From assembly GCF_054482595.1 (NCBI RefSeq), contig NZ_CM137008.1: a DNA stretch of 64,000 nucleotides, one strand, 5' to 3'. Shown in pieces: positions 2,821-25,335 of the stretch (positions are counted from its first letter, which is position 1; each line of letters begins with the position of its first letter). The position numbers were made by a program, and so were the translations under genes. Below the pieces are notes generated by a model that did not search any database, was not told where the DNA came from, and worked only from the letters and a program-made list of their open reading frames with translations.

Positions 2821-4043
2821 TGGCACTGTTTTACTATCAGGCGCTGGAGCGTAATGGTCGCAAAACCAAAGGCATGATTGAGGCGGATTCCGCGCGTCAT
2901 GCCCGCCAGTTGTTGCGCGGTAAAGATCTCATTCCCATGCACATTGAAGCCCGGATGAATGCTTCGGCAGGGGGAATGTTGCAGCGTCGGCGACACGCAC
3001 ATCGTCGCGTGGCGTCGGCAGATCTGGCGCTGTTCACGCGCCAACTGGCAACGCTGGTGCAGGCAGCAATGCCGCTGGAAACCTGCTTACAGGCGGTCAG
3101 TGAGCAAAGTGAAAAACTGCATGTAAAAAGCCTCGGAATGGCGCTGCGCAGCCGGATTCAGGAAGGTTACACCCTGTCGGACAGCCTGCGCGAACATCCC
3201 CGCGTCTTTGATTCCCTGTTTTGTTCGATGGTGGCTGCCGGAGAAAAATCCGGGCATCTCGACGTGGTGCTTAATCGCCTGGCGGATTACACCGAACAGC
3301 GACAGCGCCTGAAATCACGTCTATTGCAGGCCATGCTCTATCCGCTGGTTCTGCTGGTGGTGGCAACGGGCGTGGTCACTATTTTGCTGACGGCAGTGGT
3401 GCCGAAAATCATCGAACAGTTCGATCACCTCGGACACGCGCTGCCCGCCACCACCCGCGCGCTTATCGCCATGAGTGACGCGTTACAGGCCAGCGGCGTT
3501 TACTGGCTGGCGGGATTGCTGGCGCTTCTGGTGCTGGGGCAACGGCTACTCAAAAATCCTGTTATGCGCCTGCGCTGGGACAAAACCTTGCTGCGCCTGC
3601 CCGTGACAGGGCGTGTTGCGCGCGGACTGAATACGGCGCGGTTTTCCCGCACCTTAAGCATCCTCACCGCCAGCAGTGTTCCGCTGCTGGAAGGGATTCA
3701 GACCGCTGCCGCCGTGTCGGCAAATCGCTATGTCGAGCAACAACTGCTGCTGGCGGCAGATCGCGTCCGCGAAGGAAGCAGTCTGCGCGCTGCACTGGCG
3801 GAGTTGCACCTGTTCCCACCGATGATGCTGTACATGATCGCCTCCGGCGAACAGAGCGGCGAACTGGAAGCCATGCTTGAGCAGGCAGCGGTCAACCAGG
3901 AACGGGAATTTGATACCCAGGTGGGGCTGGCGTTAGGGCTGTTTGAACCGGCGCTGGTGGTGATGATGGCGGGCGTGGTGCTGTTTATCGTCATCGCCAT
4001 CCTCGAGCCGATGCTGCAACTGAACAATATGGTTGGAATGTAA
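2820..4043 (+). CDS. gspF: T2SS inner-membrane platform protein GspF
   Basis: 407 aa polytopic membrane protein. Its ATG overlaps the gspE stop by 1 nt. The order matches a typical gsp operon. Confidence 0.9.
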   Translation: MALFYYQALERNGRKTKGMIEADSARHARQLLRGKDLIPMHIEARMNASAGGMLQRRRHAHRRVASADLALFTRQLATLVQAAMPLETCLQAVSEQSEKLHVKSLGMALRSRIQEGYTLSDSLREHPRVFDSLFCSMVAAGEKSGHLDVVLNRLADYTEQRQRLKSRLLQAMLYPLVLLVVATGVVTILLTAVVPKIIEQFDHLGHALPATTRALIAMSDALQASGVYWLAGLLALLVLGQRLLKNPVMRLRWDKTLLRLPVTGRVARGLNTARFSRTLSILTASSVPLLEGIQTAAAVSANRYVEQQLLLAADRVREGSSLRAALAELHLFPPMMLYMIASGEQSGELEAMLEQAAVNQEREFDTQVGLALGLFEPALVVMMAGVVLFIVIAILEPMLQLNNMVGM

Positions 4044-8202: not shown

Positions 8203-8739
8203 ATGTTACGCGATAAATTTATTCACTATTTTCAGCAATGGCGTGAACGCCAGTTAAGCCGTGGCGAACACTGGCTGGCACAACACCTGGCGGGGCGTTC
8301 TCCGCGTGAAAAGGGCATGTTACTGGCAGCGGTGGTGTTCCTGTTTAGCGTCGGATATTACGTCCTCATCTGGCAGCCGTTGAGCGAACGGATAGAACAA
8401 CAGGAGACGATGTTGCAGCAGCTGGTGGCAATGAACACCCGACTGAAGAACGCCGCGCCGGATATTATTGCAGCGCGAAAATCTGCCACAACAACGCCTG
8501 CGCAGGTATCGCGGGTCATCAGTGACAGTGCTTCCGCGCACTCGGTGGTCATCAGGCGGATAGCCGAGCGTGGGGAGAATATTCAGGTCTGGATAGAACC
8601 TGTGGTGTTTAATGACCTGCTGAAATGGTTAAACGCACTGGATGAAAAATATGCGCTGCGGGTGACACAAATTGATGTCAGTGCTGCTGAGAAGCCTGGG
8701 ATGGTGAATGTGCAGCGGCTGGAGTTTGGACGGGGGTAA
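8203..8739 (+). CDS. gspM: T2SS protein GspM (T2SS-beta; K-12 YghD equivalent)
   Basis: 178 aa with an N-terminal TM segment. The sequence matches my recollection of K-12 YghD. It is the last gene before the pheV locus, as in K-12. Confidence 0.85.
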   Translation: MLRDKFIHYFQQWRERQLSRGEHWLAQHLAGRSPREKGMLLAAVVFLFSVGYYVLIWQPLSERIEQQETMLQQLVAMNTRLKNAAPDIIAARKSATTTPAQVSRVISDSASAHSVVIRRIAERGENIQVWIEPVVFNDLLKWLNALDEKYALRVTQIDVSAAEKPGMVNVQRLEFGRG

Positions 8740-17606: not shown

Positions 17607-17814
17607 CAGCTTTTCCTTACAGAGGGTGAATAAAAAAGCCGGTACCCACAAATGTGGATACCGGCAGGTACAAAACAGCATGGTCAGATAAAGTGGTTTT
17701 TCCCGGGCATAAATGCTTCCCTTCTCTCATCCGCCAGAGAAGTATCAGTCCGTTGTGTGCAATTCCGTTCTGCATGATGAAGAGATTCAGCTGCCTTTTC
17801 GCAGACCATTAACC

Positions 17815-17865
17815 ACTATAAACGATCGATAGTAACGATCGATACCTGTTTTATCGATCGTTTTA
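17815..17865 (-). promoter_or_regulatory. agn43-type Dam/OxyR phase-variation switch
   Basis: Three GATC sites (17824, 17837, 17856) sit inside ACGATCGATAGTAACGATCGATACCTGTTTTATCGATCG, about 220-250 nt upstream of the antigen 43 start. Confidence 0.8.
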
Positions 17866-17977: not shown

Positions 17978-18850
17978 TCAGAAGAAAATCCAGTTCCATA
18001 CAGCGCGGGCAACAGAGACCACCGTGTCACGGACGGCACGCAGAACCGTGCGTGCAACAGAGGCAATACAGACGCTCTCCGCTGTGTCAAATATCCGGTC
18101 CACCGCACCGGTAAACTGTTCACGGGCCTGAGACCGGACAGATTCCGTGCGCAGCTCGTCCTGCAGGCGGGTCATCAGGGGACTGGCGGCATGGTCGGGA
18201 AGCGCTGTCATGAGCGCACTGACCAGCGTATCCAGTTCCCAGCCGGTGCGGGCCGATACGGCCACAACCGGATGTACGGGCCGGAACAGACGGAATACCG
18301 CCTCCGTTTTTTCGCGAATATTCTGTGCCTGTGCGGGAGAAGGCTGAATGCCGGCCATATCCCATTCATGGCAGGGCTCCGTTTTGTCGGCCTGCGTCAC
18401 CACAAACAGCACCTGCTGATGTCCCCGGTGCAGGATGTGTCGCCAGAAATACTCATCCACAGACAGGGCACGGTCATCGGCTTTAATCAGCCACAGTACC
18501 AGGTCAAGTTCAGGCAGAATGTCACGGTACAGGGCTTCATACTCTGCATCCCTGTCCCGGCTCTCGCCCACCCCGGGCAGGTCAGTGATAATCATACTGT
18601 GACCGTGGCCACTCAGACGGAAGCGCCGCACTTCCCGGGTGCCGGCGTGAACATCACTGACCGGGGTGACCTCCCCCTGAAACAGTGCATTACAGAGTGA
18701 GGATTTACCGGCCCCGCTTTTCCCCATAATGCCAATCACGGGTTCGTGACTGGTGAGTTTGCGCAGATGTTCCAGGATGTGACGGGAAAGTGAGTAAGGC
18801 AGGGAGGAGAGCGGTTTTTCAATTGCCTCAATGGCATCAGACGGATTCAT
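17978..18850 (-). CDS. YeeP/YkfA/YfjP-type island GTPase
   Basis: P-loop GKSGAGKSS, starting MNPSDAIEAIEKP at 18850. It lies immediately upstream of antigen 43, as in CP4-44. Confidence 0.8.
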   Translation of the reverse strand: MNPSDAIEAIEKPLSSLPYSLSRHILEHLRKLTSHEPVIGIMGKSGAGKSSLCNALFQGEVTPVSDVHAGTREVRRFRLSGHGHSMIITDLPGVGESRDRDAEYEALYRDILPELDLVLWLIKADDRALSVDEYFWRHILHRGHQQVLFVVTQADKTEPCHEWDMAGIQPSPAQAQNIREKTEAVFRLFRPVHPVVAVSARTGWELDTLVSALMTALPDHAASPLMTRLQDELRTESVRSQAREQFTGAVDRIFDTAESVCIASVARTVLRAVRDTVVSVARAVWNWIFF

Positions 18851-18987
18851 ACATGTATTCCCGGTGAAAAAAGACAAAACCCCCGCACACCGGAAAGGTG
18901 GCGGGGGACTCACGGAGATAATATATGTCTGAAATTATTTGGAATGCAGGTATATGTGGCTGATACAGGTCTGAATCTAATCTGACA

Positions 18988-19011
18988 GTCCGCTCTGTGC
19001 CAGTAGCGGAC
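18988..19011. repeat. Hairpin repeat copy A (GTCCGCT-N10-AGCGGAC)
   Basis: 7-bp perfect stem at the transition from island DNA of normal composition to AT-rich DNA. Confidence 0.6.
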
Positions 19012-19204
19012 GTTACTAACATAATTCAAGAAGATTAAAGTATTCCGGAAACGATTTTGTTAGAATGTTTTAATTATGTAACCAAGATACATTTTCTTAT
19101 GAGAGTATATGCGAGTTTTTATCTTATAATCAGAAGATTACAATCTGAACTTGTGATAGTAAAGTTACATAATTAATTATGTTAACATTGAAAAAATCAT
19201 AGGA

Positions 19205-19945
19205 ATGCTAGTGATAAAGCCTGAAATTACATCTCTATTCAAATACTGCCCTATCGGTAAGAATCAATTAAGTGCTCTTGCACAGCGGAAAATCTGGTAC
19301 TCAAAACCGGCAGGATTTAACGATCCTTTTGACACCCAATTTTATGTGAGAGGACAAAGGCATGTGTACGAACGGGAAATGGACTCTGAAAAATTATCAG
19401 CCATTTTTGGTGAAGATATGTCAGATGTAATGGTTTCCAAAAAACGTTCTCTTGATGAACTTTTGGACAGATTTAAAAGCGGTTTAGAAAAGTTAGGTAT
19501 TCTTTCACTAGCAAGCAGTAACAAAAATTTGCTGATGTGGTCGCATTATGCTTCTGAACATAAAGGTATGTGCTTAGAGTTTAAACGCATCGCCGGCACA
19601 GCCTTAGCAGATGATAAAATAACTAGGCCGATGAATTACAATGATAATTATCCATCGATACAGGCAAGTTCAATTTTAAATGAAGTCGATACATTATCTA
19701 ATAAAATTAGAATATTACATACAAAATCTAAACATTGGGAATACGAGCAGGAGTGGAGGCATGTAGTTGAGCAAGGTAATGAGTTACATCCTTGGCCCGC
19801 AGAATTAATTTCTGTTTATTTCGGCTGCAAGACAGATATGTCAGATATACATTTGGTAAGAAGTATAATTACGGACCCAAATGTTAATTACTATAAAGGA
19901 AATTTGTACAGTGATAAATTTGACATTTATTTTCAACCGATATAA
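19205..19945 (+). CDS. DUF2971-like orphan protein
   Basis: 246 aa in very AT-rich DNA. Motifs LFKY...WYSKPAGFNDPFD, LLMWSHYASEHKGMCLEF and KHWEYEQEWR fit DUF2971 as I remember it. GTG 19211 is an alternative start with better SD spacing. Confidence 0.6.
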   Translation: MLVIKPEITSLFKYCPIGKNQLSALAQRKIWYSKPAGFNDPFDTQFYVRGQRHVYEREMDSEKLSAIFGEDMSDVMVSKKRSLDELLDRFKSGLEKLGILSLASSNKNLLMWSHYASEHKGMCLEFKRIAGTALADDKITRPMNYNDNYPSIQASSILNEVDTLSNKIRILHTKSKHWEYEQEWRHVVEQGNELHPWPAELISVYFGCKTDMSDIHLVRSIITDPNVNYYKGNLYSDKFDIYFQPI

Positions 19946-20006
19946 TTACGTAAAAACATATATACATTAACTAATGTTAAGTATTGTAAATACATCACGA
20001 TCGATT

Positions 20007-20076
20007 GAATGTCTGCTGTTCGCTCGCAGCGGACCTTCAGTTCATGTAACTTTTCCGCTTCGTACCAAAAGCGGAC
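20007..20076. repeat. Hairpin repeat copies B1+B2
   Basis: GAATGTCTGCTG-ttcgctcg-CAGCGGAC (20011-20034) and TCCGCTT-N8-AAGCGGA (20054-20075), between the DUF2971 gene and the GNAT fragment. Confidence 0.6.
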
Positions 20077-20090
20077 GTCAAAATGTATGT

Positions 20091-20438
20091 TCAGCTAGCG
20101 TAAGTTGAGCGTTTCATAATGATGTCTCTCTGCGGGTCTGACCCAACCTGACAAATATGCTCTCCAACCTCGGTAAACCCAAGCTTACGATAAAAAGAGA
20201 TTGCCCTTGGGTTATATTCCCAGACACCTAACCAGACAGGATCCGATCCCTTTGCCTCAAATTCAGCAAAGCACTTTTGCATCAGTGCTTGCGCAAATCC
20301 TTTACCATGGTAGGGCTCATCGACATACAGGCACAGAATTTCTCTGGCATAGATGCTATTGACACAGGGAGGAAACTCTTCCCACCTTAGTTGAGCGTCA
20401 ATTTGTGGCGAAAACCCATGAGTTAGAAATTCAATCAA
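20091..20438 (-). pseudogene. GNAT acetyltransferase, N-terminally truncated
   Basis: Only the C-terminal ~115 aa remain, including the acetyl-CoA motif (HGKGFAQALM). The frame is closed by TAA immediately upstream of a TTG pseudo-start. Confidence 0.6.
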
Positions 20439-20528
20439 TTACAGGAAGGAAAAGTAAAGGAGGGGGTGGCTCTCTTTAGGAGAGCCATGAGTGGAAATGG
20501 ATATTAGAAGAAAGGAGTTGTTTCCACA

Positions 20529-21665
20529 TTAAAAATTAAGTTCATACCTATCAATTACACCATTTTTTATTCTGTAAATAACATTAGATGAAATTGACTC
20601 AAAGTAAACATACCCAACTGCTTGGATTATATTTATTAGCATGCAAGAAAATGAAACAATGAATAGTGGCAGCGAGGATGTGTTGTAGTTTACCAGGTAA
20701 ATAAATTCGCCATAATACAATGGCCCACACATTGCGAGTGCTAATGATATAAATAAAAAACCTTTTATTGCTTTAATTAAAAATATAGAGGCGTTTATTT
20801 GTTTTCTTATCTTTTCATCGCCTAAGAGATAAAGGTTGAAATCTTGAGATTTTGTTGTGTCCACTGAGAAGATATTAAGAATATGTGGGTATATCAATGA
20901 TATATCCTTTGTTTTCATAAGATTCATCATCTCTATTCTCCGCGTGACGAACAGTGAACCCAACCAAAAAACCATGAATACAGGCATAGCATAACTAGCT
21001 ATTTTGGCTATACTTATCAATGATACACTAGATGCCATGTCACCTATTTTAAATGGGATAATTAAGGTTGATTCTATGTTGACTATCTCTATCTTTGAAT
21101 TACTCTCATCTTTTATTTTTCCATCCAACCAGTTCATTGCATCATGATAGTTTGCGATTTTATCTTTTTCAGGAAGGGCCGATTCTATTTTATCCCTTAC
21201 AATATAGCCCACACTTGATTTTTCAATCTCTTTTTTCAACACATCGTACATAAAGTATTTTAACTCATTAATTGAACTCACCTCATCAAGGTCTATTTCA
21301 CGCAATCCCTCATTTATCATTTTTTTTCTAATGGAAAAGAATTCATTTTCTATTTCTGATTTATATCTTACTGTGTCCATCTCTGATTTATTTATTCTTT
21401 TTCGAAAGTCTAGAATATCAGATACGCTTTCATTAACAGCTGAAATTTGTGTTTCGATAAATTCTATTTTTCTTCTTTTTGTTTCAATTTGTTGTTTTAT
21501 ATCTTTGTATGAGGTTATTAAAGCAAATAGGTTTTGGCTGCTTAATGTAATTAATAAAGAGCAGGTGAGGAAACTAAAAATAACAACAACAATACTCATG
21601 TATAATAATCTATCAAATCTCTTTCCCAGTTCGTACAACCTATCCACTATTCTTCTCACTTTCAA
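20529..21665 (-). CDS. Orphan membrane protein: N-terminal TM, ~150-aa coiled-coil/charged region, C-terminal multi-TM domain
   Basis: 378-aa uninterrupted ORF in AT-rich DNA. Hydrophobic segments at about aa 22-50 and in the last ~150 aa. KE-rich heptad-like middle region. I recognise no family. Confidence 0.6.
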   Translation of the reverse strand: MKVRRIVDRLYELGKRFDRLLYMSIVVVIFSFLTCSLLITLSSQNLFALITSYKDIKQQIETKRRKIEFIETQISAVNESVSDILDFRKRINKSEMDTVRYKSEIENEFFSIRKKMINEGLREIDLDEVSSINELKYFMYDVLKKEIEKSSVGYIVRDKIESALPEKDKIANYHDAMNWLDGKIKDESNSKIEIVNIESTLIIPFKIGDMASSVSLISIAKIASYAMPVFMVFWLGSLFVTRRIEMMNLMKTKDISLIYPHILNIFSVDTTKSQDFNLYLLGDEKIRKQINASIFLIKAIKGFLFISLALAMCGPLYYGEFIYLVNYNTSSLPLFIVSFSCMLINIIQAVGYVYFESISSNVIYRIKNGVIDRYELNF

Positions 21666-22144
21666 AGGCGATATAGATAGGTTATATCATGCCTTCATCT
21701 TTTGAACTAAACAATCTATATCAGATAACAGTTCTCTTCGCAGTTGTGTCCCTACTCTTTGGTGGCCCGTAGGCTCCTGAGCTGGACATCGTGCGGGACT
21801 ACCTCACAGTCAATTGTAAGCAGTAAAGAGGAACGAGAACCATTCATAGAGCCTAACACACTAAATGCCGCATTGAATCCCACGACTCGGCACGATCAAC
21901 GTAAGATAATCGGAGCTTGCTGCATGGTGACAAATGGAAAATGTGAAGGTAAAGAAAACGACATTACTAACTGACGTTTGTATCTAACACTGGGGACAGG
22001 TCACCTTGAATCGATGGAAGTCTCATTATTCAGAAGCCGTGCTTCTCAGGGTTCTCCTGCAGTGGATAGTTTGTACGATTTGCTCCTCCGGACACTACGG
22101 GCCAGAAAAGTTGAAAATTGAGACTATGTACCAGGTGCCTCAAC

Positions 22145-22215
22145 GTCCGCTCATCGCTCACAACGGACCTTCAGCTCAGCCGCTCCGGCCGCTTCATGCA
22201 ATGAATGTACGCAGC
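22145..22215. repeat. Hairpin repeat copy C (degenerate)
   Basis: 22155-22180 matches 20021-20046 at 21/26 positions (CGCTC.CA.CGGACCTTCAG.TCA). GAATGTACGCAGC follows at 22203. Confidence 0.5.
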
Positions 22216-25125: not shown

Positions 25126-25335
25126 TTACGGACGGGACTGTGCAATACGCGCCTGCAGCCAGGCTTCCACTTCACTTTTCAGCCAGCGGGAGCTGCGGCC
25201 AAGTTTGATGGGAGCCGGAAAGGCCCCATCCTTGATGAGCTTGTAAAACCACTTATCGGTCAGGCCGGTCAGCTGAGTGATAAACGCCATATCGACCATC
25301 TGGTCATCCATCAGCGAAACTGGGGGGGGGGTCAT
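25126..25335 (-). CDS. alpA: AlpA-family (prophage CP4-57-type) HTH regulator
   Basis: 69 aa, FITQLTGLTDKWFYKLIKDGAFPAPIKLGRSSRWLKSEVEAWL. SD GGAGGAG lies 6 nt upstream of the ATG. Confidence 0.85.
   Translation of the reverse strand: MTPPPVSLMDDQMVDMAFITQLTGLTDKWFYKLIKDGAFPAPIKLGRSSRWLKSEVEAWLQARIAQSRP
25322..25331 (-). repeat. Homopolymeric C10 (G10 on plus strand) tract in codons 2-5 of alpA
   Basis: Counted directly: ATG ACC CCC CCC CCA GTT. Confidence 0.95.

Follow-up and report, generated by a model that had tools for sequence, protein, structure and literature searches.

We analyzed a 64,000-nucleotide stretch of Escherichia coli DNA (the window; contig NZ_CM137008.1 of RefSeq assembly GCF_054482595.1) in which four short palindromic sites bracket two AT-rich gene cassettes. 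Genes were taken from RefSeq record NZ_CP007592.1 (chromosome of E. coli O157:H16 strain Santai), which is 100% identical to the window. In that annotation, the array lies in a CP4-like island adjoining cadC. The island backbone carries cbtA/cbeA, DUF4942, antirestriction, JAB, and Ag43 genes, the IsrC/IS102 RNA, and a yeeP-like GTPase gene, 138 nt upstream of which the first hairpin begins. From left to right, the array reads P(A)-DUF2971-Q(B1)-18-nt linker-P(B2)-GNAT'/membrane gene-Q(C), where P and Q are two classes of site and GNAT' is a truncated gene. The features are listed below, with site scores from a position weight matrix (PWM).

17978-18850, minus strand: YeeP/YfjP-like GTPase gene (RefSeq annotation), the conserved left backbone of the hotspot.
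18977-19014, plus strand: site A, class P (24-mer at 18988-19011), GTCCGCT-C-TGTGCCA-GT-AGCGGAC, 45.2 bits.
19012-20010, unstranded: cassette 1, 999 bp, AT-rich, with one gene, DUF2971, at 19205-19945 (plus strand).
20011-20034, minus strand: site B1, class Q, GTCCGCT-G-CGAGCGA-AC-AGCAGAC on the minus strand, 40.2 bits.
20035-20052, unstranded: linker, 18 nt between the Q and P 24-mers and 20 nt between the 22-nt cores.
20053-20076, plus strand: site B2, class P, TTCCGCT-T-CGTACCA-AA-AGCGGAC, 32.0 bits.
20077-22144, unstranded: cassette 2, 2,068 bp, with a GNAT remnant, a membrane-protein gene, and ~480 nt without an annotated gene.
20091-20438, minus strand: GNAT', 5'-truncated, 115 aa (RefSeq); its match to the Pfam GNAT model is confined to the C-terminal part.
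20529-21647, minus strand: predicted membrane/coiled-coil protein, 372 aa (RefSeq annotation).
22142-22179, minus strand: site C, class Q (24-mer at 22145-22168), GTCCGTT-G-TGAGCGA-TG-AGCGGAC, 42.9 bits.

The PWM, which was built from copies in other genomes, found exactly four sites in the 64 kb (32.0 to 45.2 bits), compared with a maximum of 7.7 bits in shuffled windows. An initial annotation of this DNA had reported four copies of one hairpin at these places. All four are real and are the only such sites in the window, but they fall into two classes of opposite orientation, with A and B2 belonging to P and B1 and C to Q. Site A is an exact GTCCGCT-N10-AGCGGAC hairpin and the single match in the window to GTCCGCT-N(6-14)-AGCGGAC, for which no match was expected. 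B2 (20054-20075) has the form TCCGCTT-N8-AAGCGGA, and on the plus strand B1 reads GTCTGCTG-N8-CAGCGGAC and C reads GTCCGCT-N10-AACGGAC. Site A is flanked by CTAATCTGACA on its outer side and by GTT on its inner side. The outer flank of B1 is CTTCAGTTCATG (20035-20046), and that of C, CTTCAGCTCAG, runs on into the conserved right backbone. B1 and C are direct repeats (81% over 37 nt). The 26-nt core proposed for them (20021-20046 and 22155-22180) is indeed identical at 21 of 26 positions, and the 24-nt pattern derived from it occurs at those two places only, against an expectation of 0. Site A, by comparison, matches the reverse complement of site C (22142-22179; 74% over 38 nt), so that each cassette is bracketed by an inverted pair and not by direct copies.

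Other parts of the initial annotation fared unevenly. The segments between the hairpins are strikingly AT-rich, as it had said, with a GC content of ~0.28 to 0.38 compared with ~0.55 to 0.61 in the flanking backbone. Its rule of one gene per cassette fits cassette 1 but fails for cassette 2, which holds both GNAT' and the membrane gene, and cassettes elsewhere are as long as 7 kb. Site C had been called degenerate; it scores as a good Q site, although its stem is weak, with a predicted DNA fold of -3.4 kcal/mol on the plus strand. A supposedly shared GAATGT.(C/T)GC leader had to be abandoned, since the copy at 20007 is the cargo-side flank of B1 and the copy at 22203 is conserved backbone 35 nt outside C.

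To characterize the site family, we gathered copies from four sources: E. coli records, IMG/VR contigs found with the Q pattern, IMG/VR contigs found with the P pattern, and species-representative genomes. Read from the outside inwards, the family consensus is G-TCCGCT-N-TG[T/A]GC[C/G]A-NN-AGCGGA-C, followed by a weak C.TT. It describes a 24-bp palindromic site that comes in two classes, P with the core TGTGCCA and Q with the core TGAGCGA. The central seven bases are the most invariant, at ~2.0 bits each, while positions 8, 16, and 17 of the 24-mer are free. The outer flanks belong to several unrelated families and carry only 0.1 to 0.5 bits.

The two classes follow a grammar that was upheld in ~230 loci, including P2-like prophages, lambdoid prophages, CP4-like islands, and other Enterobacterales. 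In the sample ascertained through Q, there were 80 cassette pairs consisting of P and an opposite-strand Q (median length, 1.35 kb; range, 0.34 to 5.8 kb) and 37 Q/P junctions with a median gap of 20 nt, compared with 16 other adjacencies. The 86 independent loci ascertained through P gave 63 informative cases, 51 of which had a Q on the opposite strand as the next inner site; 23 further Q/P junctions had a median of 18 nt between the 24-mers. Hybrid P/Q cores were rare (7 of 271 sites). Polarity is fixed for each backbone: the tail-sheath neighbor lies beside Q in 17 of 18 loci, and the tail-fiber neighbor lies beside P in 14 of 15. The Q-linker-P composite is kept as a unit, at 74 to 79% identity, in ~684 complete E. 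coli genomes.

Arrays of this kind were found in CP4-like islands (the window and loci L002 to L005 and L007 of our collection) and at the Z/fun position of P2-like prophages, in the interval between the tail-fiber assembly and tail-sheath genes (L006 and many IMG/VR loci). They also occur in lambdoid prophages, beside O-like replication genes or repressors or in the DUF977-hokD interval (L008, L026, and others), in Shiga toxin (Stx) phages, and on chromosomal contigs of Erwinia, Pantoea, Klebsiella, Citrobacter, Enterobacter, Leclercia, Kluyvera, Rahnella, and others. The internal junction of P2 prophages has the CP4-type Q flank CCTTTAGCTCAG, whereas the terminal Q has a P2-type flank, which fits the import of cargo-Q-linker-P units as blocks. 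In one locus (L091:942-1030), P and Q stand only 41 nt apart and the pair is near-empty; an unoccupied hotspot may have this appearance. Neither P nor Q sites occur in CP4-44 of E. coli K-12 (yeeP-yoeA region), and this element therefore offers no curated annotation for comparison.

The sites coincide with the ends of homology between strains. Matches to the left backbone in 4,166 E. coli genomes stop at 19011/19012, the last bases of A, or ~60 nt before, and megablast matches to the right backbone in ~2,180 genomes start with the opening bases of C, at 22140-22150. The interval between the same backbone sites is filled differently in other strains: L002 and L003 have an iron-uptake operon, L004 has DUF4365 with unknown genes, and L007 has HEC-08, a small recombinase, and additional genes. 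The initial annotation had called for a comparison of strains for the presence or absence of single cassettes, and the difference between L007 and L003 maps to the P site. The iron cassette follows directly after the backbone P in L003, whereas additional cassettes intervene in L007. In the P site of L003, the half facing the backbone corresponds to that of the first P of L007, and the half facing the cargo to that of the internal P of L007. A full-length GNAT homolog in Citrobacter amalonaticus (L166) is 90% identical to the window from 20069, in the inner arm of B2, to ~20398. Because this homology begins inside the inner arm, that arm moves with the cargo, and the GNAT gene of the window is 5'-truncated.

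The same pattern emerged from comparisons of many sites. Pairs of sites with the same outer flank and different cargo were 90 to 100% identical through position 14 and then diverged, and pairs with the same cargo flank and different outer flanks were identical from about position 16. Consistent with this, mutual information with the outer flank was seen at position 8 but not from position 16 onward. These comparisons place the break in or adjoining the invariant core, insofar as aligned sites can locate it. All of the comparative tests that were run support the proposal that the hairpins are recombination or insertion boundary repeats of accreted cassettes, and the sites are very probably the cassette boundaries at which exchange occurs. 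In Enterobacterales, we did not find a scatter of copies unconnected to cassettes, like that of repetitive extragenic palindromic (REP) elements: the window holds 4 sites in 64 kb, all of them in the array, and an E. coli genome has ~1 to 2 matched places.

One further observation concerns B2. In E. coli CP170329.1 (L253:4736-7700), the DUF2971 and GNAT genes are separated by an insertion sequence (IS) of the IS21 family. Beyond the IS, the sequence resumes at CAAAAGCGGACGTC, inside the B2 loop, and both sides carry a portion of the junction and of the GNAT 3' end. This arrangement suggests a rearrangement with one endpoint in the P core.

The most likely function of the sites is that of crossover points for cassette exchange and accretion. 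The sites form a family that follows a grammar and lies at homology breakpoints, with half-sites linked to their flanks; from this we infer site-specific recombination, possibly through circular intermediates. In this model, a recombinase acting in trans would carry out conservative site-specific recombination with a crossover within the invariant central 7 bp, leaving the outer arm and core with the host element while the inner arm moves with the cargo. Any two elements bearing the sites would be able to trade a cassette through combined P x P and Q x Q exchange. Recombination between two direct P (or Q) sites in an array would delete a cargo-Q-linker-P unit, and the reverse reaction would insert one. 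The two cores could act as non-compatible overlap regions that bar P x Q. The sites would thus be the points at which cargo is exchanged, gained, and lost in variable hotspots of P2-like and lambdoid phages, CP4-like islands, and other loci. Inverted arms of 7 bp, an invariant 7-bp center, two classes that rarely mix, the pairing of P with an inverted Q, and central exchange are all expected from conservative site-specific recombination at two non-compatible sites. Taken as a whole, boundary sites together with this chemistry form a proposal that we consider tentative, with somewhat less than an even chance of being correct.

Several observations weigh against this model. A recombinase gene is not consistently found beside the arrays, where the neighbors are a GTPase, a tail-fiber or tail-sheath gene, or an O-like replication gene. 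Arms of 7 bp are short for the core site of a tyrosine recombinase. The identity of arm positions is imperfectly linked to either flank, so that crossovers or mutations elsewhere in the site are possible, and because the core positions never vary, the break can be placed only between positions 8 and 16. The exact DUF2971 protein of the window was found only in the same two-cassette array, sometimes interrupted by an IS, indicating that the window cassettes are inherited as a block in current E. coli rather than showing independent recent mobility; in phage records, only distant DUF2971 homologs (<30%) were found. Finally, the occurrence of the P 24-mer as a REP-like repeat in Hyphomicrobiales, described below, points to a hairpin or host-factor function over a cassette-specific recombinase.

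Two of these observations, the missing linked recombinase and the imperfect linkage of the arms, would also be expected if the sites were simply short portable patches of homology, ~24 to 38 bp long, at which RecA, Red, RecET, or template switching at palindromes swapped the contents with no dedicated enzyme. Such a length is close to the reported minimum for RecA-dependent recombination in E. coli. The P and Q sites are the only sequence common to otherwise unrelated elements, and recombination between co-resident elements is favored by Rousset et al. 2022. What short homology does not explain is why the central 7 nt should be the most invariant, why there should be two core classes with so few hybrids, or why P should pair with an inverted Q in a polarity fixed for each backbone. 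We regard it as a possible but rather unlikely account of the sites.

We also considered whether the sites act as folded structures. Stem stability is modest (-9.3 kcal/mol for A; z = -1.0 for C), and among 110 distinct sites the arms paired in 92.3% of cells, compared with 92.1% after partners were shuffled, so that there is no covariation beyond column composition. This lack of covariation neither favors nor rules out a folded form. Arms that are conserved independently fit two half-sites that are re-assorted by central exchange. As candidates, structured RNAs of Rfam were rejected, since no covariance model matched the sites and the sites had no compensatory changes; at the gathering thresholds, the only match in the window was IS102/IsrC, and ten loci from Hyphomicrobiales had none. 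The IS102/IsrC RNA itself (17625-17861, minus strand, 74.6 bits) lies between the Ag43 and GTPase genes, like in CP4-44 of E. coli K-12. The initial annotation had held that the hairpins are not simple terminators, and we agree: a T run follows none of the four sites on either strand, and a terminator scan flagged none of them.

Outside the Enterobacterales, exact P 24-mers (for example, GTCCGCTTTGTGCCAATAGCGGAC) are abundant in metagenome-assembled genomes of Hyphomicrobiales/Xanthobacteraceae (Pseudolabrys and relatives; L134 to L251). There can be up to 12 copies in 8 kb, on many contigs per genome (L152:197-7843, L219:140-7192, L235, and L208). These copies are intergenic. Within a locus, they nearly all share a strand, and genes bordering their inner side run toward the site in 132 cases and away from it in 56. 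Often they stand in tandem, ~45 nt apart, with hairpins that have the same stem but other loops, such as TTACCCCCGAA, and the spacers between them resemble GTGCAGTGCAAC. Only class P was found in these loci, without P..Q cassettes.

These copies add weight to another possibility, namely, that the sites have a structural or regulatory role like that of REP elements and bacterial interspersed mosaic elements (BIMEs), such as protection of mRNA 3' ends or transcriptional insulation, and are carried along with the cargo so that their coincidence with junctions is secondary. The high copy number of an identical 24-mer, its intergenic position on mostly one strand, and the gene ends at its inner side all fit. 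In the window, too, cargo genes aimed at a site stop shortly before it (GNAT' 15 nt before B2 and DUF2971 66 nt before B1), and with P and Q inverted, any RNA running out of a cassette carries its boundary site in the same sense. BIMEs, in the descriptions by Gilson and Bachellier, are reportedly laid out likewise, as two subtypes that alternate in orientation and are joined by a conserved linker. In E. coli, however, the copy number is very low and copies are confined to variable regions of mobile elements; C barely folds, T tracts and stem covariation are lacking, and a pure RNA role does not predict a homology break inside the site. As the sole role of the sites, we judge this improbable.

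A third possibility is that cassettes move as single strands, through a hairpin-recognizing HUH enzyme (a REP-associated tyrosine transposase [RAYT] or a TnpA of the IS200/IS605 type) that acts in trans on P and Q as end hairpins. On one strand, both ends share the stem and differ in the loops, and conservation within the site is highest in the loops. The REP-like behavior in Hyphomicrobiales would suit such an enzyme, and genes for inovirus Gp2-type and YagK/YfjJ proteins lie a few kilobases off in CP4-like islands. But neither a conserved cleavage tetranucleotide nor a fixed target was seen outside the sites, where the outer flanks belong to several unrelated families, the break falls inside the site and not beside the foot of the hairpin, and Y1 transposases were absent in and near the arrays examined. 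We consider this route very improbable. Recombination at the sites and these other roles are not mutually exclusive.

We compared the arrays with other systems that move or delimit small genetic modules. Like integron cassettes, those between P and Q are promoter-poor, differ in composition from their surroundings, hold one to a few genes of very high diversity, and could plausibly pass through a circular intermediate of cargo plus site; attC elements and the Q-linker-P composite are also alike, as ~65-nt elements made of two inversely related simple sites. They differ in that a P/Q array opens with half a junction (P) and closes with the other half (Q), and in that the sites are common to many unrelated mobile elements instead of one platform. 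An integron array was rejected for this locus: intI was not found beside the array, and in the queried region and 20 kb to its left and right, the only annotated recombinase was a frameshifted integrase fragment. Likewise, attC was rejected because the site consensus lacks RYYYAAC/GTTRRRY cores and cargo occurs in both orientations.

The arrays also resemble the pdif (XerC/XerD) modules of Acinetobacter plasmids and engineered recombinase-mediated lox/FRT cassette exchange, where modules lie between two inverted short sites. As with heterospecific lox/FRT sites, two non-compatible centers would permit exchange without inversion or loss. Adjacent P/Q modules, however, are separated by two sites and not by one that they share, as in pdif. 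The dif and cer sites have an 11-6-11 layout with XerC and XerD arms. A Xer/dif site (28 bp, 11-6-11) was rejected, as the P/Q consensus, compared by eye, had no similarity to dif or cer in sequence or spacing. With REP elements, BIMEs, and REPINs, the sites share short imperfect palindromes, two subtypes in alternating orientation, a conserved linker, and placement just after genes. Unlike them, P and Q have few copies per E. coli genome, only in variable regions of mobile elements, and their sequence is unrelated to the E. coli REP consensus; dispersal as hundreds of copies in the core genome was rejected for E. coli on the counts given above, although the Hyphomicrobiales genomes, with their many copies of the P 24-mer, do show this trait. 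A transposon or mobile insertion cassette with terminal inverted repeats was rejected as well, since the outer tips are not conserved and target-site duplications were absent beside P2 and CP4 copies.

The P sites also resemble sites of the Rci shufflon of IncI plasmids, whose Rci protein is a tyrosine recombinase. The sfx sites of Rci have a 7-bp crossover core, GTGCCAA, and a 12-bp right arm, TCCGGTACGTGG (PMC4176322, PMC11852207). The P core, GTGCCA(A/G), agrees with the sfx core at 6 to 7 of 7 positions, and the right arm agrees at 6 of 12. Inversely oriented sites are used in both systems, and the resemblance is at most a lead to a possible link. P and Q are symmetric, with arms of 7 bp, whereas the left arm of sfx varies and its right arm spans 12 bp; in addition, the Q core is different and rci is not nearby.

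The element is related to inverted repeats already on record for P2-like prophages. GenBank accessions AJ512677 to AJ512682 are "P2-EC.. proviral Z-region" records with sequences annotated as left and right inverted repeats. In AJ512681 and AJ512677, the left inverted repeat (3-115) ends with ...CTAATCTGACAG-TCCGCT.TGT.CCAAAAGCGGA, which is a P site with the same flank as site A, and window positions 18977-19017 align to these two records at 82 to 88%. The right inverted repeat of AJ512677 (1616-1706) opens with a Q site; that of AJ512681 (3166-3256) lacks one, and the Q-like sequence of that record lies near 3780-3800. P2 fun(Z) itself is flanked by such sites. The P2 Z/fun region thus has the same sequence family, with differing AT-rich open reading frames (ORFs) between the repeats of different phages, as between the sites of window-type arrays. 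It differs from the window in setting, as the P2 array lies between genes G (tail-fiber assembly) and FI (tail sheath) and the window array in a CP4-like island by a yeeP-like GTPase gene, and in structure, as the window has two cassettes, a Q-linker-P junction, and the Q-side flank CCTTCAGCTCAG where the P2 Z region has CTGTCAGATTT.

The inverted repeats of the P2 Z/fun variable region were reportedly described by Nilsson, Karlsson, and Haggard-Ljungquist in 2004 (Mol Biol Evol 21:1), in a paper to which the AJ512677 to AJ512682 data belong and whose title implies that copies in islands were reported too. A passage of PMC8987985 summarizes Nilsson et al. 2004. Given the repeat annotation of AJ512677 and AJ512681, this kind of element has been known since 2004, and the window is a further member, located in a CP4-like island. 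A literature search found no paper describing the grammar of the two classes, their composite junction, or the occurrence of the sites in lambdoid phages and further genera, which is weak evidence of absence. Exact site strings had no match in the literature, and keyword searches for recent papers on hairpin- or repeat-flanked defense cassettes found nothing pertinent. Rousset et al. 2022 report that genes in P2/P4 hotspots are replaced at a high rate, state that the mechanism of exchange is unknown, and cite the 2004 paper for variable loci. Phage "morons" and the defense hotspots of P2 and P4 are likewise AT-rich and often hold anti-phage genes at fixed positions of temperate phages. The hotspots in those descriptions are defined by flanking core genes, with no boundary sequence, whereas here they are delimited by a defined pair of sites that also occurs in elements other than P2.

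The cargo of the arrays is highly varied, with known defense genes among it. Across 146 cassettes, we counted 266 ORFs that fell into 219 protein clusters at 35% identity. PADLOC matches included GajA, several defense reverse transcriptases, AriA, AbiL, PtuA, HEC-02A, HEC-08, and PD-T7-1, and Pfam matches included HEPN, AbiTii, OLD-type TOPRIM, and a restriction enzyme. Pfam transporters, LysR regulators, and resistance genes were found mainly in chromosomal loci outside E. coli. In the window, the DUF2971 protein of cassette 1 matches Pfam DUF2971 (3.6e-11) and the PADLOC candidate defense family PDC-S31 (2.5e-58). Cassette 2 is itself composite, joining a gene remnant to an AT-rich gene without an intervening site; its 372-aa membrane protein had no match in Pfam, PADLOC, or NCBIfam. 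The junction between GNAT' and the membrane segment, near 20398, is where the AT-rich part starts, and it is unmarked by P or Q.

Defense-gene hotspots in P2-like phages, P4-like satellites, and islands are now a main source of new anti-phage systems. A site pair common to unrelated elements offers a testable handle on how their contents are exchanged, and the P and Q sites provide a simple rule, based on sequence, that marks out cargo cassettes in the search for new defense genes. They also link a largely forgotten observation from 2004 to the present literature on defense islands. By itself, the window is a modest result: a two-cassette array of a known kind with one candidate defense gene (DUF2971/PDC-S31) and a gene remnant. 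In its widest form, which we put forward as a doubtful conjecture, a single natural system of cassette exchange would be common to enterobacterial temperate phages, satellite-like islands, and some chromosomal loci. It would use P and Q sites and a trans-acting recombinase, possibly Rci-like, with circles of cargo-Q-linker-P excised and inserted at any P, and would supply the missing mechanism for the rapid turnover of anti-phage genes at defense hotspots. Its sites would descend from an ancient REP-like hairpin that is also present in Hyphomicrobiales.

Some P/Q cassettes carry a 200-aa stand-alone catalytic domain of a tyrosine recombinase (L007:6303-6941, L008:11014-11652, L043:3664-4284, L026, and L104). 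The protein is 92 to 96% identical across a CP4-like island, a lambdoid prophage, and P2-like prophages, and the genes around it vary, with HEC-08 and PD-T7-1 among them. A perfect 15-9-15 palindrome, CATACTCAAATCTCC-N9-GGAGATTTGAGTATG, overlaps its start codon. We rejected it as the general enzyme of the system, as it occurs in only 5 of ~130 loci and has a palindrome of its own that is unrelated to P and Q.

On the cargo side of site A (19012-19025), we noted the motif C(A/G)TTGCTAACA(G/T)C, which is CGTTACTAACATAAT in the window and is also found at the inner flanks of many P and Q sites (L012, L025, L047, and L010). A subset of sites thus shares a longer motif, and the repeat can reach ~13 nt into the cassette. 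In the window, this extension gives rise to a weak sigma-70-like match, GTGCCA-17-CATAAT, directed into cassette 1. A sigma-70-like promoter with the P core as its -35 element (18997-19025) was rejected, because the region had 16 matches compared with 12.1 expected, which is not above shuffled sequences.

Elsewhere in the island, the start of an HTH regulator gene (25319-25335, minus strand) reads ATGACCCCCCCCCCAGT, with a run of ten C's in the window where L002 and L003 have ATGACCACCCCAGT or ATGGCTACCCCAGT; the run could be a slippage-prone tract or a sequencing artifact. The only integrase in the region examined is the frameshifted fragment beside cadC, at ~8530-8690 (9631-9790 in L001), ~10 kb from the array. 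The island runs on through IS elements (ISEc38 and a Mu-like fragment) to the citrate-lyase cluster. With a frameshifted integrase and a continuation linked by IS elements, the island looks immobile and rearranged.

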